Positions 2,624 through 38,504 of a stretch of DNA of 64,000 bases are shown here, one piece after another. A program made the position numbers and the translations under genes. Origin of the DNA: Candidatus Omnitrophota bacterium (GTDB lineage Bacteria; Omnitrophota; Gorgyraeia; Zapsychrales; Zapsychraceae); assembly GCA_035292445.1 (NCBI GenBank), contig DATDQB010000002.1, forward strand, positions 14,714 through 78,713, in the 5' to 3' direction. Under the pieces are notes generated by a model, which ran no database searches, was not told where the DNA came from, and saw nothing but the letters and a program-made list of their open reading frames with translations. The number at the start of each line of letters is the position of its first letter. Position 1 is the first letter of the stretch.

Positions 2624-5446
2624 ATGAAAGACGAAGCCTCCCAACAAGTCGATTTTCGAAAGACGCTTAATTTGCCGCAGACCGAGTTTGCGATGAAGGC
2701 GGGGCTCGCCCAGAAAGAGCCGCTCTATCTGGCGAAATGGGAAAAAGAAGGCCTTTACCAGAGGATCTGCCAGCAGCTTGCGGGCAAACCGAAATTCATT
2801 CTCCACGATGGGCCGCCGTACGCCAACGGCAACATCCACATCGGCCACGCCCTCAATAAAACGCTTAAGGACCTGATCGTCAAATCCAAAGCCATGCAGG
2901 GCTTTGACAGCCATTACCTTCCCGGCTGGGATTGCCACGGGCTTCCGATCGAGCACGCATTGTTGAAAGAAATGAAAAAAAGAAAAAGTGACGTTGATTG
3001 CGTGGACTTTCGCAAAAAAGCGCATGACTACGCGATGAAATACGTGGGTATCCAGCGCGATGAGTTCAAACGGCTGGGTATTTTCGGCGAATGGGAAAAA
3101 CCGTATCTGACGCTTAATACTGAATACGAATATTGGATCCTGAAATCATTATCGGAATTGTTCAAGAAAGGCTATGTGTATCGCGGGCTCAAGCCCGTCA
3201 ACTGGTGTTTCAGCTGCGAGACGGCTCTCGCCGAAGCGGAGGTCGAGTACGAAGACCATACGTCCCAATCGATGTACGTGAAATTTAAGGTCGAAAATAA
3301 AGAAACCAAACCTTTATATTTGTTGATCTGGACGACAACGCCCTGGACGCTTATGGCGAACGTTGCGGTCGCCGTTCATCCTAATTTTAAATATGTTGTT
3401 GTGGATACCGGCAAAGAAGTCCTCATTATGGAAAAATCTTTGAGCGCTGCTGTCTTGGCCAAAGTCGGCGTTCAATCATCGAAAATCCTCAGAGAAGTTG
3501 AAGGCGGCCAGCTGACAACGCTTACTTACGAACACCCTTTTGGCCTAAGAAAGAATTGCCGTGTTGTGACGGCCGATTATGTCACCAAAGAAGACGGCAC
3601 AGGCTTGGTCCATACCGCGCCTGGCCACGGGCAGGAAGATTTCGAAACGGGATTGAAATATAAACTTGATGTCGTGATGCCGGTCAATGACAAAGGCGTT
3701 TATACGAGCGAAGCGGGCCCTTACGCCGGCGAACATGTGTTCAAGGCCAATGATAAAATTATCGAGGAACTCAAACAAAAGGGGGCACTTTTCCATAAAG
3801 AACCTCTCCAACACACTTACCCGCATTGCTGGAGATGCAAGAACCCGATCATTTTTCGCGCGACACGGCAGTGGTTCATGAAGATCGACCACGACGGGTT
3901 AAGGCAGAAACTCCTTAAGGCCATTCAAAAGGACGTAAAGTGGGTGCCACCGGCGGGTGAGGAGCGGATCACCGCGATGGTGGCGACACGTCCCGATTGG
4001 TGTTTGTCCCGTCAGCGGTTTTGGGGCGTGCCGATTCCGGCCATTAGATCAAAAAAAGAAGGCAGTGAACCCCAGTTGTACCCTGAGGTCATCGATCATT
4101 TTGCCGAGATCGTCCGCAGGGAAGGGACAAATGCCTGGTTCGAGAAAGATATCAAGCAATTGCTTCCCAAAGGTTTCAAAGATCCCAAGACCGGTGAGGC
4201 CGAATTTGAGAAGACATTTGATATTTTGGATGTGTGGTTCGATTCCGGCGTCAGCCACCAGGCGGTCGTTAAAGGAATTTTAAAAGAAAAACTGCCCATC
4301 GACCTTTACCTGGAAGGAAGCGACCAGCACCGCGGCTGGTTCCAGTCTTCCTTAATACCGGCGGTGGCGATCGAAGGCAAGCCGCCTTTCAAAGAAGTGT
4401 TGACGCATGGCTTTGTCGTTGACGGGGCGGGCCGCAAGATGTCGAAGTCGTTAGGGAACGTCGTTTCTCCGCAGGATGTGATCAAAGAAAGCGGGGCCGA
4501 TATCCTGCGTCTTTGGGTAACAGCCAGTTCTTATAATGAAGACATCCGCATTTCCAAAGAAGTGTTGGAGCGCCTCGTTGATGCTTATCGTAAGATTCGA
4601 AACACAATCCGCTACCTATTAAGCAACCTCTATGACTTCGATCCCGACAAAGAAATGCTTGATTACAAGGACCTTAAGCCGCTGGATAAGTGGGCGCTGC
4701 ACCAACTGGCCAAAGTCATGGAAGAAAGCTATAAGAATTTTAATGAATATGAGTTTGCCAAGATCTACAAGAGCGTTTATACTTTCTGTAATGAGGAGCT
4801 GTCGAACTTTTATCTTGACATTTTAAAGGACAGGCTTTATATTTCTGCTGCCCAATCACGGGAAAGAAAGTCCGCGCAAAACGCTCTTTACCACATTTTG
4901 AATTACAGCGTTCGTTTGCTGGCGCCGGTCCTCGTTTTCACATGCGAAGAGATCTTTGAGCACATGCCCAAGGATAAAGAGCTTAAGAAATACGGTAGCG
5001 TGCATTTGTTACAGTGGCTTAAGGTCCCCGGGGTTTGGAAAGACGAAGAGATCAGTAAACGTTTTGAATTGCTGCTGCGCTTGAGGCCGCATGTGATGAA
5101 AGCATTGGAAGACAAACGCCGCGAAGGCACCATCGGCAGCTCATTGGAAGCCAAGGTCATCTTTAAAACGGCCAGTGAACGCGATTATACGTATTTGACG
5201 AGCTTCGGCGAGGAATTGGCCGACATGTTCGTCGTATCGCAAGCCCATATTGAGAAGGCGAAGGATATCGCGGGGGGCATTGATAACGAGTTCTTGAAGA
5301 CCCAGATTTCGGTCGTTAAGGCGGACGGCAAAAAATGCGCCCGTTCATGGAAATACAGCTTGGATGTTGGCAGTGATCCACAGTTCCCGGCACTGTCGTT
5401 AAAATCAGCAAAGATAGTAAAGGAGATGTTGCATGCCAGTTCATAA
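2624..5446 (+). CDS. ileS: isoleucyl-tRNA synthetase
   Basis: 940 aa; class I HIGH motif (PYANGNIHIGHALN) and KMSKS (KMSKSLGN); length and CP1 editing region typical of IleRS. Confidence 0.95.
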   Translation: MKDEASQQVDFRKTLNLPQTEFAMKAGLAQKEPLYLAKWEKEGLYQRICQQLAGKPKFILHDGPPYANGNIHIGHALNKTLKDLIVKSKAMQGFDSHYLPGWDCHGLPIEHALLKEMKKRKSDVDCVDFRKKAHDYAMKYVGIQRDEFKRLGIFGEWEKPYLTLNTEYEYWILKSLSELFKKGYVYRGLKPVNWCFSCETALAEAEVEYEDHTSQSMYVKFKVENKETKPLYLLIWTTTPWTLMANVAVAVHPNFKYVVVDTGKEVLIMEKSLSAAVLAKVGVQSSKILREVEGGQLTTLTYEHPFGLRKNCRVVTADYVTKEDGTGLVHTAPGHGQEDFETGLKYKLDVVMPVNDKGVYTSEAGPYAGEHVFKANDKIIEELKQKGALFHKEPLQHTYPHCWRCKNPIIFRATRQWFMKIDHDGLRQKLLKAIQKDVKWVPPAGEERITAMVATRPDWCLSRQRFWGVPIPAIRSKKEGSEPQLYPEVIDHFAEIVRREGTNAWFEKDIKQLLPKGFKDPKTGEAEFEKTFDILDVWFDSGVSHQAVVKGILKEKLPIDLYLEGSDQHRGWFQSSLIPAVAIEGKPPFKEVLTHGFVVDGAGRKMSKSLGNVVSPQDVIKESGADILRLWVTASSYNEDIRISKEVLERLVDAYRKIRNTIRYLLSNLYDFDPDKEMLDYKDLKPLDKWALHQLAKVMEESYKNFNEYEFAKIYKSVYTFCNEELSNFYLDILKDRLYISAAQSRERKSAQNALYHILNYSVRLLAPVLVFTCEEIFEHMPKDKELKKYGSVHLLQWLKVPGVWKDEEISKRFELLLRLRPHVMKALEDKRREGTIGSSLEAKVIFKTASERDYTYLTSFGEELADMFVVSQAHIEKAKDIAGGIDNEFLKTQISVVKADGKKCARSWKYSLDVGSDPQFPALSLKSAKIVKEMLHASS

Positions 5447-15142: not shown

Positions 15143-15595
15143 ATGAAACAGTTTAAAAAGACGACTAACAAGCAGTTGGGCGAGCTTCTTATTGAGCGCG
15201 GTTTTATCAACCATGAGCAGCTTCATATCGCCATTGAACAGCAAAAGAAACACGGCGGCCTCTTGGGGGAAATCTTGGTAGATTTAAAATTCGCAACCGA
15301 GAAAGATATTGCCCAGGCCTTGACCGCCCAGTACGGATTTCCGTACCTGCCCTTATCCAATTATGAAATCGATCAAGAAGTCATTGAGTCCATCCCTGAA
15401 AATATCTGCCGGAAATTTTGTTTAATTCCCATCGACCGCATCGGCAAAAGTTTGACCCTGGCGATGGCCAACCCTTTGAATATTCAGGCCGCCGAAGACG
15501 TTGAGCTCATTACCGGCTGCAGCGTTCAGGTGTTTGTCAGCACCTCCACCGAAGTTAAACAGACGATCGACAAGTATTACAAAAAGTCTTCCTAA
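15143..15595 (+). CDS. standalone MshEN (c-di-GMP-binding) + T2SSE_N domain protein, no ATPase domain
   Basis: 150 aa; two tandem 24-residue MshEN-type motifs QLGELLIERGFINHEQLHIAIEQQ and LLGEILVDLKFATEKDIAQALTAQ (pattern [RK]LGxxLxxxGxIxxxQLxxALxxQ); then GspE-N1-like LIPIDRIGKSLTLAMANPLN...ITG...V....I..YY. Confidence 0.7.
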   Translation: MKQFKKTTNKQLGELLIERGFINHEQLHIAIEQQKKHGGLLGEILVDLKFATEKDIAQALTAQYGFPYLPLSNYEIDQEVIESIPENICRKFCLIPIDRIGKSLTLAMANPLNIQAAEDVELITGCSVQVFVSTSTEVKQTIDKYYKKSS

Positions 15596-17349
15596 TGGCG
15601 TCTTTAAAGGAACGAATAAAACAAATCCTCCTTCGCGACAAGCTCATTGAGCCGGCCCAGCTTAATAAAGCCCTGGAAGAGCAGAAGGAAAGCGGCGAAG
15701 AACTCAGTAAAATCCTTGTTAATTTGAAACTCATCGAAGAGGACACGTTAAGTCAAATCCTCAGCGAAAGTTTAGGCCTACCGCAGATTGATATTGCCCG
15801 CCTTCAGATCGACCCAAGCGTCGTTAAACTTATCCCTAAAGAATTGGCAGAGAAATATAAGCTTATCGCAGTTTCCTTGATGGGAGAAAACCTTTCTCTC
15901 GCCATGGCCGATCCACTGAACATTTTTGCCATTGATAATGTGAAGGCCTTGACGGGCTATACCATTAATCCCATTATCGGCAGGGCCAAAGATATTGCGA
16001 CGGCGATCCAGAAATATTATTACGAGGCTCAGGAGGAAGTCGAGGAAACATCCGCCAAATTCGATGAGATTATCAAAGATATTCAGTTGGAAGAGAAAAT
16101 GGAATTGGTCAAAGAGGTTGACGCGGATGTCGGAGGGCTTTCCATTGAGGAATTAACGCAAGAAGCGCCTATTATCCGTCTGTGTGACACGATCATTCAG
16201 CAGGCTGTCGTGGCCAAAGCCAGCGACATTTTTATTGAACCCATGGATAAAACGGTGCGCGTGCGCTACCGCATTGACGGCGTCATCCAGGAGATCGATC
16301 GTATGGCGAAGGTGATTCATCTGCCGTTGGTTTCGCGCATCAAAGTCATATCGACTTTGGACATATCCGAACACCGCCTGCCCCAGGACGGGCGGTTTAA
16401 AACGATCATTTCCGGGAATCGCGAAGTCGATTTCCGTGTCAACGTCCTTCCAACGGCGATGGGGGAAAAGGTTGTTTTGAGAGTTTTGGATAAAGACACC
16501 TCCGTTTTAAATATTGAGAGGCTGGGCTTTGATGCAGACTCGCTCAAGCGCTTGGAGGAATGTTATAAAAAGCCCCATGGAATGATCTTGGCTTGCGGGC
16601 CGACGGGATCGGGAAAGACAACGACGTTGTACTCCATTTTAAAATCGTTGGACTCACCAAAGAAGAATATCGTTACGGTGGAAGACCCCGTAGAATACCA
16701 AATGAAAGGGATTAATCAGGTCAATGTTAAAGCTGCTACGGGGCTGACCTTTGCCACCAGCTTGCGTTCTATTCTGCGCCAGGACCCGGATATTATCATG
16801 ATTGGGGAGGTCAGAGATTCCGAAACATTGGATATTGCCGTTAAAGCGGCTTTGACGGGGCATTTGGTCCTAAGCTCATTGCATACGACGACTGCTGCCG
16901 GTTCCATTGTCCGTATGGAAAACATGGGGATCGCTCCTTTTTTGATCTGTTCCAGCGTTTTGGTCATCATCGCCCAAAGGCTCATACGAAAGGTTTGTCC
17001 TCATTGCAAGGAGTCCTATTCTTTGTCCGCTATGGTGTCGGAGAAAGTCGGGTTAACGAGATTATATCCGAGCAAAGCCAAGTTTGAGTTGTTTCGCGGC
17101 GTGGGTTGCAAGAAATGTTTCAAGATGGGCTATGCGGGGCGGGTGGTGATCGCGGAGGTGTTGATTTTTTCTCCCAAACTTAAAGAGATCATCCTTAACC
17201 GGGCCGGAGAAATCAAACTTAAAGAAGCGGCCCGCCGGGAAGGGATGAAAACCATGCGGGAAGACGGGCTGATGAAGGCGGTGGAAGGCATCACCACTCT
17301 CGAAGAAGTCTTGCGCGTTACAGCACCGGATGAAGCGCTTAAGAAATAA
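15595..17349 (+). CDS. pilB: type IV pilus/T2SS assembly ATPase, PilB/GspE/MshE family (paralog 1)
   Basis: 584 aa; N-terminal T2SSE_N domain with degenerate MshEN motifs; Walker A GPTGSGKTTT; tetracysteine CPHC...CKKC; start overlaps upstream stop (TAATG). Confidence 0.85.
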   Translation: MASLKERIKQILLRDKLIEPAQLNKALEEQKESGEELSKILVNLKLIEEDTLSQILSESLGLPQIDIARLQIDPSVVKLIPKELAEKYKLIAVSLMGENLSLAMADPLNIFAIDNVKALTGYTINPIIGRAKDIATAIQKYYYEAQEEVEETSAKFDEIIKDIQLEEKMELVKEVDADVGGLSIEELTQEAPIIRLCDTIIQQAVVAKASDIFIEPMDKTVRVRYRIDGVIQEIDRMAKVIHLPLVSRIKVISTLDISEHRLPQDGRFKTIISGNREVDFRVNVLPTAMGEKVVLRVLDKDTSVLNIERLGFDADSLKRLEECYKKPHGMILACGPTGSGKTTTLYSILKSLDSPKKNIVTVEDPVEYQMKGINQVNVKAATGLTFATSLRSILRQDPDIIMIGEVRDSETLDIAVKAALTGHLVLSSLHTTTAAGSIVRMENMGIAPFLICSSVLVIIAQRLIRKVCPHCKESYSLSAMVSEKVGLTRLYPSKAKFELFRGVGCKKCFKMGYAGRVVIAEVLIFSPKLKEIILNRAGEIKLKEAARREGMKTMREDGLMKAVEGITTLEEVLRVTAPDEALKK

Positions 17350-17354
17350 TCGTT

Positions 17355-19064
17355 ATGGCCAGCACGCTCAAAGATAAAATCTTAAAGACATTGATCGAGA
17401 CCCAAGGGCTCAAAAAGCACGATATTGATGCGGCCATTGATCTGCAAAAAAGAAAAGGCATCAGCCTCGATAAGGCGCTCATGGAAAAGGGCCTTATCAA
17501 GGAAAAAGATTATTTGATCCTTCTGGTCCGCGAGCTTAATATCCCGTTTATTAATTTAAGCAAGTACAATATTGACCCCGCCCTGAAAGAAATCTTCCCG
17601 GAAAGAATCGCGCGCCAGTACAAAGTCATTCCCCTTTCGGCGTTGACCGACACTTTGACGGTCGCCATGAGCGACCCGTTGAACATTTTTATCATTGATG
17701 ACTTGAAGAGTATCACGGGCAAACAGATCGATGTGGTCATCAGCACCAATTCGGAAGTCGAGAAGGCGCTGGATAATTATTACGGTAAGGAATCGACGGA
17801 GTCGGTAACGGATATCAGCAAAGATATCCATGTGGAAGATTTTGAGATCGTGACGGAAGAGGTGGCCCGGCAGGATGTCGATACGGTGGTGGATGAAAGC
17901 GAAAAGGCGCCGATCATCCGGATGGTGAATTTGATCATTCAGGATGCGCTGCGCAAAAAAGCCTCCGACATCCATATGGAGCCGATGGAAGACGGGGTGC
18001 GGGTGCGTTTTCGTATCGACGGGATTTTGAGGGATGTTTTAACGGTTCCTAAGGCTAACCAGAATGCGGTGACTGTCCGCATCAAGATCATGTCGCGTTT
18101 GGACATCACCGTCAACCAGGTGCCGCAGGATGGGCGTTTTAAGTTGAAGTTGGGAAATAAAGAAGTCGATTTTCGTGTCTCCATCCTGCCGACCAGCCAT
18201 GGGCAGAAAATCGTCATGCGGGTTTTGGACAAGGTCAATTTGACCGTCGGCCTTGACGGGCTGGGCTTCAATCCCAAGGCGCTTGAGATCATGAAAGAAG
18301 GCATCAAAAAGCCGTTCGGCATGATCATTGTCACAGGCCCGACAGGAAGCGGGAAATCAACGACCCTTTATTCCATCGTCAATGCTTTGAATTCGGTCGA
18401 TAAGAATATCATCACTATAGAGGATCCGGTTGAATATCTGATCGAAGGGTTGACGCAGATCCAGGCCCGCCCGGAGATCGGCCTTACTTTTGCCGAGGGG
18501 CTAAGGGCCGTTTTGCGCCAAAGCCCCGACATCGTGATGGTCGGCGAGATCCGCGATAACGAAACCGCCGATATCGCCATTAAAGCGTCGTTAACGGGGC
18601 AGCTGGTTTTATCGACGCTTCACACCAACGATGCCTCCGGCGCTCTGACCAGGTTGGTTGATATGGACGTAGAGCCGTTTTTGGTGGCCTCCAGCATTGT
18701 CTTGGTGACCGCCCAACGGCTTTGCCGAAAGATTTGTCCGAGATGTAAAAAGGAAGAAGATGTCCCCAAGAAGGTTCTGGACCAGATGGAGTACAAATTG
18801 AAAGCGGGGACGAAATTTTATCACGGTAAAGGTTGCCCCGTGTGCAATGATACTGGATACCAAGGCCGCATTGCCGTTACCGAAATACTCGAAATCAACG
18901 ATACGGTGCGGGAAATGCTTTTGGGAGGGAAAACATCCGATGATATTAAGGAATACGCCCGTAAGGAACTCCAAATGGCAACGCTTTGGGAAGACGCGAT
19001 GAATAAATGCCTTAACGGTATCACCAGTTTGGAAGAGGTTTTACGCGTTACCAGTGAAGATTAA
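17355..19064 (+). CDS. type IV pilus/T2SS assembly ATPase, PilB/GspE/MshE family (paralog 2)
   Basis: 569 aa; N-terminal T2SSE_N; Walker A GPTGSGKSTT; tetracysteine CPRC...CPVC; too long and N-domain-bearing to be PilT. Confidence 0.85.
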   Translation: MASTLKDKILKTLIETQGLKKHDIDAAIDLQKRKGISLDKALMEKGLIKEKDYLILLVRELNIPFINLSKYNIDPALKEIFPERIARQYKVIPLSALTDTLTVAMSDPLNIFIIDDLKSITGKQIDVVISTNSEVEKALDNYYGKESTESVTDISKDIHVEDFEIVTEEVARQDVDTVVDESEKAPIIRMVNLIIQDALRKKASDIHMEPMEDGVRVRFRIDGILRDVLTVPKANQNAVTVRIKIMSRLDITVNQVPQDGRFKLKLGNKEVDFRVSILPTSHGQKIVMRVLDKVNLTVGLDGLGFNPKALEIMKEGIKKPFGMIIVTGPTGSGKSTTLYSIVNALNSVDKNIITIEDPVEYLIEGLTQIQARPEIGLTFAEGLRAVLRQSPDIVMVGEIRDNETADIAIKASLTGQLVLSTLHTNDASGALTRLVDMDVEPFLVASSIVLVTAQRLCRKICPRCKKEEDVPKKVLDQMEYKLKAGTKFYHGKGCPVCNDTGYQGRIAVTEILEINDTVREMLLGGKTSDDIKEYARKELQMATLWEDAMNKCLNGITSLEEVLRVTSED

Positions 19065-19142
19065 ATGGTTTTTGTATTTTCAATTATTGTTTTAATGGTA
19101 AAATGATTGTAAACTTTAACTGGAAAGGTTTTTAAAAATACG

Positions 19143-19598
19143 TTGATGATTCAAATAGAGGGCCAAGCGCCGCAGCGACATCTTTTGGGGGAGATATTGA
19201 TTCAACGCCGGCTCATCACCCCGGGGCAATTGCAAAGGGCGCTGGAGGTTCAGAAGAACGAGAAACGGTATTTGGGCGAAATCCTGATCGATCTGGGGAT
19301 CGTGGAGGAGCGGGATATTCTGGTCGCTTTAGTCGTCCAATGCAATCTTCCCTATATAGCAGTCCACAACTACTCCATTGATCAAAATGTCATCAGTCTT
19401 ATCCCGGTCGAGATGGCCAGGCGATATCATGTGATGCCCTTGGACCGCGTCGGTGACATCTTAAGCGTCGTTATGGCCGATCCATTGAATGAAGAAATCA
19501 AAACAGAGCTCATTAAAGCGACCCAGTGCCAGATCGCGCCTTTTATCGCGACCAAAGCAGAAATAGAAGAAGCCATCAGCCGATGGTATAAAAGCTAA
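19143..19598 (+). CDS. standalone MshEN (c-di-GMP-binding) + T2SSE_N domain protein, no ATPase domain
   Basis: 151 aa; near-canonical tandem MshEN motifs LLGEILIQRRLITPGQLQRALEVQ and YLGEILIDLGIVEERDILVALVVQ; then T2SSE_N-like ...DILSVVMADPLNEE. Confidence 0.7.
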   Translation: MMIQIEGQAPQRHLLGEILIQRRLITPGQLQRALEVQKNEKRYLGEILIDLGIVEERDILVALVVQCNLPYIAVHNYSIDQNVISLIPVEMARRYHVMPLDRVGDILSVVMADPLNEEIKTELIKATQCQIAPFIATKAEIEEAISRWYKS

Positions 19599-19604
19599 AC
19601 AACC

Positions 19605-20810
19605 ATGCCAACATTTAAATATACAGCCAAAAATAAAGACTCCCGCACCGTCGCCGGAAAGATTGTCGCCGAAAACCAGCAGGCGGTTATCGAAGAACTG
19701 CGAAAGCGCAATTTAGTCATTCTCAATCTTAATGAAACCAAAGAAGTCACGGCCAAGAAAACCGCTTTCCAGAGCAAAAAAGTCAAAGGGGAAGAGATTG
19801 TCATCTTTTCCCGCCAATTGGCCACGATGGTCGAAGCCGGCATCCCTATCCTGCAAGGGGTTAACGCGTTGAAAGACCAGGTCAATCATCCTGCCTTCAA
19901 GAAAGTTCTGGGGCAGGTGGAAAGCGATATTCAGCACGGCAGCAGCCTTTCAGTCGCGTTTTCCAAACACCCCCAGGTTTTTAGCACGTTGTTTGTCAAT
20001 ATGGTCAAAGTCGGGGAAACCGGAGGCGTTTTGTCCCAAATCTTGGACCGGATCGCCACGTATTTGGAGAAAACGCTTCGTTTGCAAAGAAAAGTCAAGG
20101 CGGCCCTTATTTATCCGGCGGTCGTTGTTTCCATGGCGATCATTATTACGGTTTTTCTTCTTGTTAAGGTTGTTCCGACCTTCTCCGGGATTTATGAATC
20201 GTTCAATGCGGATTTGCCGGCGATGACGGTAGTGCTGATTACCATAAGTAAAATTCTACGGCAGAATATTCTTTGGCTCGCGGGTGCGTTGATCATAGCG
20301 GGGTTTTTTTTAAGGCGGTGGTATAAAACAGATAAAGGAGCGCTTGTCATTGACCGAATTTTTTTAAGGTTGCCTATTTTCGGGGAACTTTTAAGGAAAG
20401 TCGCCATCAGCCGGTTCAGCCGCACGCTGGCCACGCTGGTGCAAAGCGGCGTTCCCATTCTTGAATCGTTGGATATTGTCGAGAAAACCATTGGCAACAA
20501 AGTCCTTGAACTTGTTGTCCGGGATGTCAAGAGCACGGTCCGGGAAGGAGAAAGCATCGCCACTCCTTTGGAGAAAAGCAACGTTTTCCCGCCCATGGTC
20601 ACGCGCATGATCGCGGTGGGTGAGAAAACCGGCCAAATGGAGAAAATGCTTTTAAAAATCTCCGAATTTTATGATGACCAAGTGGATGCGGCCGTTGAGG
20701 GTTTGACCAGTGTTATCGAGCCTTTGATCATCGGGTTCTTAGGGATTGTCATCGGATTCATCGTGGTTGCGTTATTCTTGCCTATCATCAATATCACGCG
20801 TTTAATATAA
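19605..20810 (+). CDS. pilC: type IV pilus platform protein PilC/GspF family
   Basis: 401 aa; two repeated GspF domains each followed by TM segments; begins MPTFKYTAKN... typical of PilC. Confidence 0.85.
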   Translation: MPTFKYTAKNKDSRTVAGKIVAENQQAVIEELRKRNLVILNLNETKEVTAKKTAFQSKKVKGEEIVIFSRQLATMVEAGIPILQGVNALKDQVNHPAFKKVLGQVESDIQHGSSLSVAFSKHPQVFSTLFVNMVKVGETGGVLSQILDRIATYLEKTLRLQRKVKAALIYPAVVVSMAIIITVFLLVKVVPTFSGIYESFNADLPAMTVVLITISKILRQNILWLAGALIIAGFFLRRWYKTDKGALVIDRIFLRLPIFGELLRKVAISRFSRTLATLVQSGVPILESLDIVEKTIGNKVLELVVRDVKSTVREGESIATPLEKSNVFPPMVTRMIAVGEKTGQMEKMLLKISEFYDDQVDAAVEGLTSVIEPLIIGFLGIVIGFIVVALFLPIINITRLI

Positions 20811-20819
20811 TTTTCGTTT

Positions 20820-21818
20820 ATGAGCAAATCTCTTCATAATACGTTTTGGTTGAAAGGATGCGTCCTTCTTTGTTTTATGCTTTGTCCTGCCTTAAAGGTC
20901 GAAGCGCAAGTGCACAGCCGAAACTCACCCGTTCTATCCTTGGAATACAGCTTAAAGAGTCTATACGACAGCGCCAATGAAGTGGCGAAGAAAAACGAAT
21001 GGCTTCGCCAGGAAATCGACCGGATGAGCCAGGAAGTTACGTTTATAACGGAAGAAATGCGCTCTTTGGAAACCAACCAAACCAAGGGTATGGTTGGCCA
21101 AGCGCTGGGGGATGAGGGTTTGATGAAAGATATTCCCTGGGAAGAGAAACGCATCCAGATGATGTATGAGGATTTTATTGAATTGGATGAGGAGGAAAAG
21201 TATTTAAAGGATCGTTTTGAAGGGAAAAAAAATGACCAACAAGAGATCGAAGAGGCTGTTTATAAGCTGGAAAAAGAAGTTGCCCAGCTGGCCAATCAAA
21301 GGTTACAGGCCGAAGAGGCGCTGGGCCGTCGGGGTGACGCTGGGGAATTTGACCGGTTAAAGGACGCTTATGCCCGAGCGGCCAGGCATCTTAAGATCAC
21401 GAGAGATAAATATCAACGGTTAGAAAATCAGCACGGCCAGCCGCTGAAGGTTTTTAGCAAGATAAAGGACAGGAATATTGAGCTTAAGGGGCGGCAGGCT
21501 TTTTTGAGCAAGCAGATCCATTTGATTAACGAGCGGCAAATAAGCTTGGGGGAGGAAATCGACAACATCAAAGCAACAGATAAGGAGAGATTAAGCCTCC
21601 TTCAAAAGGACGTTGGGGATTTATCCAGGCAAAGAGAAGATTTATTAAGGGTCTTAAAACGGGCGAATGTCAAATTGGGCAAAGATTTCAGCATACCGGA
21701 TTATGATGCCCAGATCGGCCAGGTTAAGGGAAATATTGAAACGATCAAAGAGGAAAACCGCCTCCTTAAAGAAGAGCTGATTTCTTTGGAAAGCAAGATG
21801 TTGGAAGCCCCCCAGTAG
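20820..21818 (+). CDS. hypothetical secreted coiled-coil protein embedded in pilus locus
   Basis: 332 aa; N-terminal signal peptide (CVLLCFMLCPALKVEA|Q); remainder E/K/L/Q-rich predicted coiled coil. Confidence 0.5.
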   Translation: MSKSLHNTFWLKGCVLLCFMLCPALKVEAQVHSRNSPVLSLEYSLKSLYDSANEVAKKNEWLRQEIDRMSQEVTFITEEMRSLETNQTKGMVGQALGDEGLMKDIPWEEKRIQMMYEDFIELDEEEKYLKDRFEGKKNDQQEIEEAVYKLEKEVAQLANQRLQAEEALGRRGDAGEFDRLKDAYARAARHLKITRDKYQRLENQHGQPLKVFSKIKDRNIELKGRQAFLSKQIHLINERQISLGEEIDNIKATDKERLSLLQKDVGDLSRQREDLLRVLKRANVKLGKDFSIPDYDAQIGQVKGNIETIKEENRLLKEELISLESKMLEAPQ

Positions 21819-21849
21819 CTTTTTTGGCCCCTGGCCGCTTGGGGCCGGG

Positions 21850-21879
21850 TTGACAAGGGGCAGGGGGCCGTGGTATACT
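21850..21879 (+). promoter_or_regulatory. sigma70-like promoter TTGACA-N18-TATACT driving the riboswitch RNA
   Basis: TTGACA at 21850-21855, TATACT at 21874-21879; the -35 box sits in a partial copy of the intergenic repeat. Confidence 0.5.
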
Positions 21880-21904
21880 TAGGTTGAAACTTTGACAAGA
21901 AGGA

Positions 21905-22012
21905 TTTATCTGTGAAACAGGGTAAACCATTCGTAAGGATGGGGCACAAAGCTATCCCGACGTCCCCTAAAAGTAGTTTAAGGAAGTCGGGACCCCGACC
22001 GAGTGAAACGAG
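21905..22012 (+). ncRNA. candidate c-di-GMP-I (GEMM) riboswitch aptamer
   Basis: ACAGGGUAAACC-AUUCGUAAGGAUGG-GGCACAAAGC closely parallels V. cholerae Vc2 ACAGGGCAAACC-AUUCGAAAGAGUGG-GACGCAAAGCC; GNRA-capped hairpin CCAUUC-GUAA-GGAUGG; second helix UCCCGAC/GUCGGGA; no credible ORF; lies upstream of a type IV pilin, a known GEMM context. Confidence 0.6.
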
Positions 22013-22068
22013 CGTCGGGGGAGGGCCCAAGCGGGTTAGGCCGCGGGTAGCCAGTTGCCACATAAGGT

Positions 22069-22089
22069 TAAGCTTAAAAAGCTTTTTTT
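22069..22089 (+). terminator. short intrinsic terminator (AAGCTT palindrome hairpin + T7), candidate expression platform of the riboswitch
   Basis: AAGCTT aaa AAGCTT followed by TTTTTTT. Confidence 0.45.
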
Positions 22090-22124
22090 AACCTATTCCT
22101 TACATTCGGAATAGGTTTTTTTGT
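22090..22124 (+). terminator. strong intrinsic terminator
   Basis: AACCTATTCC ttacattc GGAATAGGTT 10-bp stem followed by TTTTTTTGTTTT. Confidence 0.7.
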
Positions 22125-22176
22125 TTTGGAAGATCTTTGAAATTGCAGGCCTCTTTGAAGAAATCTTGAATCGAAA

Positions 22177-22206
22177 TTGACAAGATTAGGAGGTGAATGG
22201 TAGAGT
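22177..22206 (+). promoter_or_regulatory. candidate sigma70 promoter for the pilin gene (TTGACA-N18-TAGAGT)
   Basis: perfect -35, acceptable -10; about 148 nt 5' UTR to ATG 22354. Confidence 0.4.
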
Positions 22207-22353
22207 AAAATCACTTTAATTGTGCACGGGTCAATAGGTTATCATCGTTCGGCGGGATTAAGAATAACACGTTATTATTCATTCTTTACATACTCCTTGC
22301 TGGATGAAAGAAAGCCTGGCGGCCCAAAACCAGTAACAGTAAGGAGAAATAAG

Positions 22354-22749
22354 ATGAAAAGGCTAAAAAATCAAGGTTTTACGCTCGTTGAAATCATGAT
22401 CGTTGTCGCGATCATCGCTCTGTTGGCGGCTATTGCCATCCCCAACTTGTTAAGAGCGAAAATCTCCGCTAACGACGCGTTAGCGCAGAGCACGCTACGT
22501 ACCCTTTCTACGGCATCTGAGACGTTTGCTACCTCAAACAACGGTACGTATCCGGGTGACATCACATCGTTGACAGGCGCCACACCACCGTATATAAATG
22601 AACCATTTTGTACTCAAACTATTTCCGGGTTCGTATATGGTTGTACGATGGCTGCGGGTAGTTATTCGTTTGCCGCTGTCCCCGTTAACGTGGGTGTATC
22701 TGGTACGACAACGTTTACCATGACAACCGGCGGTATTTTAACTCCGTAA
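22354..22749 (+). CDS. pilA: type IVa major pilin (prepilin with N-terminal methylation motif)
   Basis: 131 aa from ATG 22354 with AAGGAG RBS; leader MKRLKNQG|FTLVEIMIVVAIIALLAAIAIP with G-1, F+1, E+5; C-terminal Cys pair; followed by strong terminator. Confidence 0.9.
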   Translation: MKRLKNQGFTLVEIMIVVAIIALLAAIAIPNLLRAKISANDALAQSTLRTLSTASETFATSNNGTYPGDITSLTGATPPYINEPFCTQTISGFVYGCTMAAGSYSFAAVPVNVGVSGTTTFTMTTGGILTP

Positions 22750-38072: not shown

Positions 38073-38145
38073 GCCCCTGTAGCTCAGTTGGTAGAGCACG
38101 TCCTTGGTAAGGACGAGGCCATCGGTTCAATACCGATCGGGGGCT
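38073..38145 (+). tRNA. tRNA-Thr (anticodon GGT)
   Basis: cloverleaf folded by hand: acceptor GCCCCTG/CGGGGGC, D-arm GCTC/GAGC, anticodon stem CGTCC/GGACG with loop TTGGTAA, T-arm ATCGG-TTCAATA-CCGAT, discriminator T; no encoded CCA. Confidence 0.85.
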
Positions 38146-38431: not shown

Positions 38432-38504
38432 AGGCCTGTAGCTCTAATGGTAGAGCAGCGGCCTCCAAAGCCGTGTGTTGTGGGTTCGAGTCCTACCAGG
38501 CCTG
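38432..38504 (+). tRNA. tRNA-Trp (anticodon CCA)
   Basis: acceptor AGGCCTG/CAGGCCT, anticodon loop CTCCAAA, T-loop TTCGAGT; canonical position upstream of secE-nusG. Confidence 0.85.

Follow-up and report, generated by a model that had tools for sequence, protein, structure and literature searches.

We analyzed 64,000 nucleotides (nt) of Candidatus Omnitrophota DNA from contig DATDQB010000002.1 (the window) and found, upstream of a type IVa pilin gene, an RNA element that is probably a class I cyclic di-GMP (c-di-GMP) riboswitch, that is, a GEMM-I riboswitch, in a lineage-specific long form. Its fold, its homology to GEMM-I copies that pass the Rfam thresholds, and the conserved arrangement of promoter, terminator, and pilin are established, and we have little doubt that the aptamer itself is of the GEMM-I type. 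An earlier reading of this DNA from its letters alone (the sequence-only reading) had proposed that a GEMM-I-type aptamer, served by its own promoter and with an intrinsic terminator behind it, precedes the pilin, and this is borne out by the copies that occupy the same place in related Omnitrophota loci and pass Rfam. The RF01051 model recognized the copy in locus L004 with 68.8 bits (gathering score, 35), while RF03167 (gathering score, 59) was passed by L007 (64.1 bits) and L005 (59.2 bits). The short-form copy of L042 also passed, with 64.1 bits.

The window copy was harder to recognize. At gathering thresholds, the whole window returned only two tRNA genes (38073 to 38145 and 38432 to 38504); RF01051, for which the sequence-only reading had expected a match above threshold, was absent, as was RF03167. 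A permissive scan of 21800 to 22360 gave one relevant match, to RF03167 (c-di-GMP-I-GGC), which covered the whole model (21912 to 22063; E value, 9.9e-5) with a very large insertion in the second stem and reached 28.7 bits against the required 59. RF01051 scored below RF03167 on the window; both belong to Rfam clan CL00126, and two lower matches of that clan were suppressed. We attribute the low score to an insertion of 67 nt, consisting of two hairpins that we call Ha and Hb. Along similar lines, none of the nine long forms examined reached a gathering score with correct boundaries: on L049, L044, and L057, RF01051 did score above threshold, yet it took Ha for the P1b helix and so cut the 3' end short. 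When a covariance model was built from long-form relatives with the revised structure (model R1), the window scored 139.9 bits over the full length, at 21909 to 22064, and the same search found no second copy of the element in the window.

Relatives were collected by several routes. The coiled-coil protein encoded next to the element has only two homologs in the protein collection. The loci of one of them (L002 and L003) are identical to the window, and in the locus of the other (L001), the 5' half of the RNA, including the start of the insertion, is 96% identical up to the point where the contig ends. Given that the flanks of L001 are far less similar (76.5% identity for the PilC DNA and 47% for the coiled-coil protein), the RNA appears to be under selection. 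A PilC search of species-representative genomes provided seven related loci, four of which have GEMM-I aptamers at the same position, three of them above threshold; the PilC relatives L006, L008, and L009 have neither riboswitch nor pilin on the plus strand. Finally, a metagenome scan with a pattern derived from the shared 5' half added 39 further loci.

Comparison of these copies revealed two forms. The threshold-passing relatives contain the window strings GGUAAACCAUUCGUAAGGAUGGGACACAAAGCUAU and GGUAGCCAGUUGCC, with the 5' core and the 3' strand almost verbatim, but have a short P1b hairpin. Most copies are of this short form, reading GCUAU-A-GGGYCC, a loop, GGGUAGCC, and AGUUGCC. In ten copies, including the window, the single bulged A of the short form is replaced by Ha (CCCGAC...GUCGGG) plus Hb (CYCCGAC...GUCGGRG), after which the canonical distal P1b and the 3' strand continue unchanged; in the window the insertion amounts to ca. 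67 nt. One metagenome contains a pair of the two forms, L042 (short) and L047 (long), whose aptamers are nearly identical save for a discrete 57-nt Ha-Hb block.

The complete long-form aptamer, from the 5' to the 3' strand of P1, spans 21911 to 22062 on the plus strand according to both the RF03167 alignment and model R1. The sequence-only reading had delimited it as 21905 to 22012, so its 3' end lies ca. 50 nt further 3' than supposed. The sequence features listed in that reading are all present where it had placed them, and the 5' core does superimpose on canonical GEMM-I. P1 is formed by UGUG (21911 to 21914) and CACA (22059 to 22062); it appears in the minimum-free-energy fold of 21886 to 22064, and its columns covary among 41 copies, with two-sided changes in three of the four pairs. 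Inside P1, ACAGGGTAAACC (21917 to 21928), CCATTC-GTAA-GGATGG (21927 to 21942), and GGCACAAAGC (21943 to 21952) follow one another. The P1a (P2) hairpin at 21922 to 21947, supported by the Rfam alignment, R1, and covariation, has outer pairs GU/AC (21922 and 21923 with 21946 and 21947), an inner stem CCAUUC/GGAUGG (21927 to 21932 with 21937 to 21942), and a GUAA tetraloop (21933 to 21936); 99 to 100% of its alignment cells are paired, and three pairs show two-sided changes (alignment A4).

The second arm departs from the canonical layout. The base of P1b, AGCU (21950 to 21953) with AGUU (22053 to 22056), is 99.4% paired and nearly invariant. Then comes Ha (21956 to 21991; CCCGAC-GU-CC...GG-AA-GUCGGG), which is absent from short forms, folds alone, and has a base helix that is 96.7% paired with three covarying pairs among the 10 long forms. 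The strands TCCCGAC (21955 to 21961) and GTCGGGA (21986 to 21992), taken for P3 by the sequence-only reading, belong to this inserted hairpin. Hb (21993 to 22020; CCCCGAC, a 14-nt loop, and GUCGGGG) is 100% paired among the long forms, again with three covarying pairs; examples of compensation are CUCCGAU/AUCGGGG in L057 and CAUCGAUC/GAUCGGUG in L066. Together, the two hairpins fold stably as an isolated segment. The canonical distal P1b lies at 22023 to 22052, with GG:CC, GCCC:GGGU, an inner GCGG:CCGC, and a GUUAGG loop. It matches the short-form P1b in all copies (AGGGCCC...GGGUAGCC; helix 8, 96% paired), and with the conserved 3' strand GGGUAGCCAGUUGCC it is contained within 22023 to 22058. 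The insertion of Ha and Hb into the P1b 5' strand is thus predicted to turn P1b into a four-way junction. A pairing of GCUAUCC with GGGUAGC as P1b, with one distal insertion, was considered and dropped after the comparison of short and long forms.

Alignments supported this structure quantitatively. Among the 10 long forms, 95.5% of the cells were paired, compared with 31 to 46% when partners were slid, and two-sided changes occurred in 11 pairs, three each in Ha and Hb, a number reached by none of 500 shuffles. For all 41 copies, 95.9% of the cells were paired and 23 pairs had two-sided changes, again not reached in 500 shuffles. Both alignments were fitted to the model, which favors the structure, and in the larger one the short forms were forced into the Ha and Hb columns, so that the alignment of 10 long forms is the relevant test of the insertion. 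The three-helix junction of P1, P1a, and P1b is kept by compensatory changes as far as these alignments indicate, and covariation supports every helix. The sequence-only reading had looked to homologs for covariation in its proposed helices; compensatory changes are indeed found in all of them, with the proviso that the helix it had named P3 is Ha and not P1b.

This pattern also bears on two further explanations. One is that the insertion broke a former GEMM-I riboswitch and sensing was lost. The score under the Rfam threshold would agree with such decay, as would the nonfunctional c-di-GMP riboswitches of Clostridioides difficile and the in vivo unresponsiveness of Bc1. We consider it very improbable: at least 10 distinct long-form sequences were found, in which changes in Ha, Hb, and P1b compensate for each other, all contact nucleotides are intact, and conservation of the RNA far exceeds that of the flanking genes. 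The other is that the region is no RNA element but codes for a small protein through the 59-amino-acid open reading frame with a GTG start at 21912 to 22091, which is open in the window and in ca. 60% of the copies. This deserves hardly any weight, since about 14 of 36 copies have stops in that frame, insert lengths vary by non-multiples of three, and the substitutions preserve base pairs and not codons, with no conserved open reading frame.

The identity of the ligand can be approached through the contact nucleotides. In Vc2 of Vibrio cholerae, the prototype of the class, c-di-GMP is contacted by G20, A47, and C92, and an interhelical C-G pair is universally conserved (PMC4744006, PMC5888326). 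The equivalents in the window are G21921, A21948, and C22058, all at matching unpaired model positions. G21921, the unpaired G at model position 10, corresponds to G20, which contacts one guanine of the ligand (PMC4744006, PMC5888326); A21948, at model position 37, corresponds to A47, which intercalates between the two guanines (PMC4744006); and C22058, which aligns with the unpaired C in the "UGC" of the Rfam models, corresponds to C92, the Watson-Crick partner of the second guanine (PMC4744006, PMC5888326). The interhelical pair is represented by the bulged C21945 (within GGGGC; C44 in Vc2) and by G22050 (G83 in Vc2), held in the AG bulge at 22049 to 22050. Both sit in proper bulges and are invariant in all copies, an invariance that leaves covariation without signal. 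From these conserved bases, c-di-GMP is the predicted ligand.

Other members of the family were set aside on the same positions. RF03167 is the best-scoring Rfam model for the window and several relatives; its signature, a G at the position of A47 (model position 37), is missing, as the window and all relatives have A, and the GGC variant was rejected. The RF03167 model probably scores best only through its better tolerance of the P1b insertion. The riboswitch for cyclic GMP-AMP (cGAMP; GEMM-Ib) reportedly has A in place of G20, and with G21921 at that position in the window, a cGAMP-type aptamer was rejected as well. A class II riboswitch was ruled out, as RF01786 (c-di-GMP-II) had no match within 21800 to 22360 at E values of up to 10.

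Set beside Vc2 and RF01051, then, the element has the same three-helix junction, the core GGYAAACC, a GNRA hairpin, GGGRCRCAAAGC, and AGCC-AGUUGCC, the equivalents of G20, A47, C92, and C44/G83, and a place upstream of a motility or adhesion gene. It differs in the ca. 67 nt of Ha-Hb in the P1b 5' strand and in combining its GUAA tetraloop with no recognizable canonical 11-nt tetraloop receptor. The insertion adjoins the segment of P1b that, going by the Vc2 structure, would be expected to receive the P1a tetraloop. As a separate observation, in minimum-free-energy folds of longer transcripts, the leader UUUAUCU can pair with GGGUAAA (21904 to 21926), a hairpin that would sequester the G20 equivalent and is conserved only within the strain.

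We then considered how the element could act on gene expression. Its promoter, TTGACA-N18-TGgTATACT with a TG-extended -10 box, is found at 21850 to 21879 (plus strand; 11 of 12 hexamer positions in a consensus scan), where the sequence-only reading had placed a promoter, which would put the transcription start at ca. 21886; in most relatives, TTGACA-N17/18-TGnTATACT lies ca. 30 to 40 nt 5' of the aptamer. Downstream of the aptamer, the strong intrinsic terminator of that reading is likewise present at 22090 to 22124 (plus strand). It consists of AACCUAUUCC, an 8-nt loop, and GGAAUAGGUU, followed by U7, with a stem at 22090 to 22117 of -13.4 kcal/mol. A matching terminator was found 15 to 60 nt past the aptamer in all 36 nonredundant copies that have downstream sequence; the stems of the relatives covary, and their 5' strand, CCUAUUC, is conserved in sequence, often after UGUGA.

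Between aptamer and terminator, the linker (22066 to 22089, plus strand) holds the hairpin AAGCUU-AAA-AAGCUU followed by U7, which the sequence-only reading had seen as a weak terminator at 22069 to 22089 and a plausible ligand-controlled expression platform. The hairpin exists (-3.5 kcal/mol; six base pairs, two of them G-C), though it went unreported by the terminator scan, a counterpart was sought in the other copies and none was found, and its proposed role as the platform is unsupported. The Bacillus thuringiensis class I riboswitch Bc1, which has a dual terminator, shows that a GEMM-I aptamer can be followed by two terminator-like hairpins, with the difference that both of its terminators are typical and conserved, whereas the first hairpin of the window is weak and unique to the strain (PMC11218506).

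The pilin gene (22354 to 22749, plus strand) encodes a type IVa major pilin of 131 amino acids (Pfam N_methyl, 5.7e-9), with its ATG 230 nt 3' of the terminator. It has a second promoter of its own, missing from the sequence-only reading, which lies 3' of the terminator at 22177 to 22206 on the plus strand (TTGACA-N18-TGgTAGAGT; 10 of 12 positions in the consensus scan); most pilin loci keep TTGACA-N17-TGnTAnnAT at this position. Several observations concern this part of the locus. The spacer of the pilin promoter often reads AAGGAGGTGA, a perfect Shine-Dalgarno-like string that is frequent but not universal among relatives, and in the window it is followed by a three-codon mini-ORF, ATG GTA GAG TAA (22199 to 22210). 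Two blocks in the ca. 150-nt 5' untranslated region of the pilin, CACGGGTCAATAGGTTA and AACACGTTATTATTCAT (22225 to 22241 and 22266 to 22282), are kept across many loci, with a consensus of about ACCGTYATYATNCT; they have no Rfam match and may represent a further regulatory element.

In ca. 27 of the related loci, a pilin of the same kind lies 300 to 450 nt downstream of the element, and in others the place is taken by secreted surface-type proteins. In L038, L039, L044, and L060, the different gene starts only 30 to 80 nt past the terminator, without a separate consensus promoter, which argues that this riboswitch family acts in cis. As to what these genes are, the riboswitch of L038, L039, L040, and L044 precedes large secreted proteins with ...ATYYVRTDGGT after the signal peptide, and that of L060 precedes a pseudopilin-like gene; such nonpilin targets suggest that the regulon is broader than the major pilin. 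We therefore think it likely that the element works in cis as a transcription attenuator. RNA started at the extended -10 promoter would fold into the P1/P1a/P1b aptamer, followed by the linker hairpin and the self-contained terminator, and the attenuator would set how much transcription from the upstream promoter enters a pilin gene that also has its own promoter.

A different reading of the same arrangement is a stand-alone small RNA, in which a transcript of ca. 240 nt (ca. 21886 to 22124) always terminates and acts in trans or as a c-di-GMP-binding RNA, with the pilin expressed from its own promoter only. A dedicated promoter and a strong terminator followed by a separate conserved pilin promoter would suit it; so would the lack of a convincing ligand-coupled antiterminator in the window copy and the full-length folds, which retain both the aptamer hairpins and the terminator. 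We nevertheless regard it as rather improbable, considering the related loci in which a gene without a separate promoter begins 30 to 80 nt past the terminator, the constant position of the element directly 5' of a pilin or surface-protein gene on the same strand, and the failure to identify any trans target.

The direction in which the cis attenuator would switch is the weakest step, particularly in the window copy. An OFF switch is the most likely direction, and our confidence in it is about evenly balanced. Without c-di-GMP, the P1a 3' strand plus the junction (GGAUGGG-CACA) would pair with the 5' strand of the terminator and allow read-through; with c-di-GMP, this segment would be locked in the aptamer and the terminator would form, the single-stranded junction serving as a toehold that is buried on ligand binding. 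Two findings favor this direction, although they are only suggestive. First, the terminator is self-contained, with a stem that overlaps no aptamer strand, as in Cd1, an OFF switch of class I; in the ON switch pilM, by contrast, an aptamer strand is part of the terminator (PMC9262584). Second, when RNAduplex was used to find the upstream sequence that best complements the pre-terminator together with the 5' strand of the terminator, it chose the aptamer segment UAAGGAUGGGACACAA, which is the P1a 3' strand plus the junction, in about 27 of 36 copies. L004 carries the full UGUGACCUAUUCC element, L041 and L058 have the junction GCGCA and the pre-terminator UGCGC in place of ACACA and UGUGA, and in folds of truncated transcripts of most copies, the terminator 5' strand pairs back into the aptamer. 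This antiterminator support consists of RNAduplex and truncated-fold statistics, as indels in the linker preclude a reliable column alignment.

Cd1, which lies upstream of flgB in C. difficile, resembles the window element in layout, with a separate self-contained terminator after a class I aptamer and an antiterminator formed with aptamer strands (PMC9262584). Its target is flagellar, it has no P1b insertion, and its antiterminator differs from the one proposed here, in which the partner is the P1a 3' strand plus the junction. We also tried a competition among three copies of AAGCU (in the aptamer and twice in the linker), which was unsupported, since the best linker site by RNAduplex was not the AAAGCU of the aptamer.

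The opposite direction, an ON switch in which bound c-di-GMP would favor transcription past the terminator and pilin would become more abundant as c-di-GMP activates pilus assembly, is distinctly less likely. It would fit the two PilB ATPases with MshEN domains and the stand-alone MshEN protein encoded in the locus. Precedents exist in C. difficile pilA1 (class II), the only well-studied riboswitch-controlled pilin, and in the class I riboswitch Bc2, which controls an adhesin, both of them ON (PMC6366702). In the window, moreover, the linker AGGUUA (22066 to 22071), just 3' of P1, can pair in truncated folds with UAACCU (22089 to 22094) at the start of the terminator, making an antiterminator released by P1 formation conceivable. 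Against it, pilM and other ON switches usually work through an overlap of the terminator stem with an aptamer strand, which is lacking here; the complementarity that the aptamer and the terminator 5' strand show throughout the family would have no role; and no conserved anti-antiterminator was found among the relatives. The pilus-linked precedents, Cdi-2-4 (class II; pilA1 of C. difficile) and the GEMM-Ib (cGAMP) riboswitch of pilM in Geobacter metallireducens, resemble the window element in controlling type IV pilus genes by transcription termination. Both are ON switches with terminators that overlap the aptamer, unlike that of the window; moreover, the former is of another aptamer class (RF01786), and the latter senses cGAMP via A at position 20, where the window element has G.

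Several points weigh against the interpretation of the element as a c-di-GMP-responsive OFF attenuator. With regard to identity, no member of the Rfam clan reaches its gathering score in the window, and the 67-nt insertion beside the expected tetraloop-docking region could alter ligand binding. With regard to attenuation, the pilin has its own promoter, so that read-through may matter little. The proposed antiterminator has only modest z-scores against shuffles (mostly -1 to -3) in copies that are related to each other, and one of the complementary strands is just rich in G and the other in C/U. In the window itself, aptamer and terminator pair over only 7 base pairs (-8.8 kcal/mol), no better than in shuffles and with no UGUG element, and the linker is the preferred partner of the terminator 5' strand. 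A pilin OFF switch also sits oddly with the MshEN-type PilB ATPases of the locus, and in the C. difficile precedent c-di-GMP turns the pilin ON, although direction cannot be extrapolated from one c-di-GMP riboswitch to another (PMC6366702).

The Ha-Hb module raises questions of its own. It could be a functional add-on, with the four-way junction retuning ligand affinity or specificity, replacing the tetraloop receptor, or docking a protein or a second signal, and the conserved core could also anchor the swapping of pilin cassettes; we regard this as a doubtful proposal. That the core could serve as an upstream homology anchor is suggested by the gain or loss of the module as a block (L042 and L047) and by a breakpoint at its first bases (the window and L057). 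Metagenome contig L057 (1 to 3656) is 99.95% identical to 18304 to 21959 of the window over 3.66 kb, and the identity collapses at 21959/21960, the start of Ha. Past the break, the 3' half of a long-form aptamer is still well formed in L057, although its Ha, Hb, distal P1b, and P1 3' strand differ in sequence from those of the window. The break has the look of strain-level recombination within the riboswitch, an assembly chimera being the alternative. In the other pair, the aptamer 3' half, untranslated region, and pilin (L042, 6452 to 7108; L047, 11022 to 11732) are 94% identical and the aptamer 5' half is 88% identical, while the upstream DNA is unrelated, and L047 has two tandem pilin genes. 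Together, the L057 break and the cassette shared by L042 and L047 indicate that a variable pilin cassette has its border at the riboswitch.

An origin of Ha-Hb from a mobile element or dispersed repeat was rejected, since neither the window nor 67 loci contained another copy. P1b has been expanded more than once in Omnitrophota, given that the GEMM-I element of L010 (4252 to 4379) has extra sequence inserted 3' of P1a as well as a long extension of P1b that is unrelated to the one in the window (30.9 bits, below the Rfam threshold). A different kind of variation was seen in L052, which has two GEMM-I copies ca. 700 nt apart on the same strand (5326 to 5430 and 4528 to 4622, both minus).

The surrounding genes, assigned from the open reading frame list and Pfam in the window, form a type IV pilus locus. 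Upstream of the riboswitch lie the genes for two PilB-type ATPases with MshEN domains, the stand-alone MshEN protein, PilC, and the coiled-coil protein, and downstream the pilin is followed by PilM, PilN, PilO, and the secretin. The sequence-only reading had described the locus as full of c-di-GMP receptor domains. Three Pfam MshEN domains account for all of them, the tandem PilB paralogs having one each and the 151-amino-acid stand-alone protein the third (15595 to 19598). The strict c-di-GMP motif was unmatched in these domains, and near-consensus motifs were found only at the N terminus of the stand-alone protein, as two tandem copies (LLGEILIQRRLITPGQLQRALEVQ and YLGEILIDLGIVEERDILVALVVQ). 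A search of the 64 kb for GGDEF, EAL, HD-GYP, and PilZ motifs confirmed none.

Both the GEMM-I class and the control of type IV pilins by cyclic-dinucleotide riboswitches are well known; what is new is the pilin context in Omnitrophota and the long form with its predicted four-way junction in P1b. No earlier description of this variant or of GEMM elements in Omnitrophota was found in the searchable literature, which is not proof of absence. The long form leaves existing knowledge of how the riboswitch class works unchanged and is otherwise an ordinary member of it. It does represent a two-hairpin P1b subclass that current Rfam models miss or delimit wrongly, so that automated annotation would undercount such elements or misplace their boundaries. 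The natural pair with and without the insertion (L042 and L047) provides material on the role of peripheral elements in GEMM-I folding and ligand binding. The bacteria of the phylum Omnitrophota are very small and uncultured, and type IV pili probably have a central place in their lifestyle. With the present findings, the class I c-di-GMP riboswitches now include members at pilin genes of this phylum, which suggests that pilin supply is under c-di-GMP control at the RNA level there.

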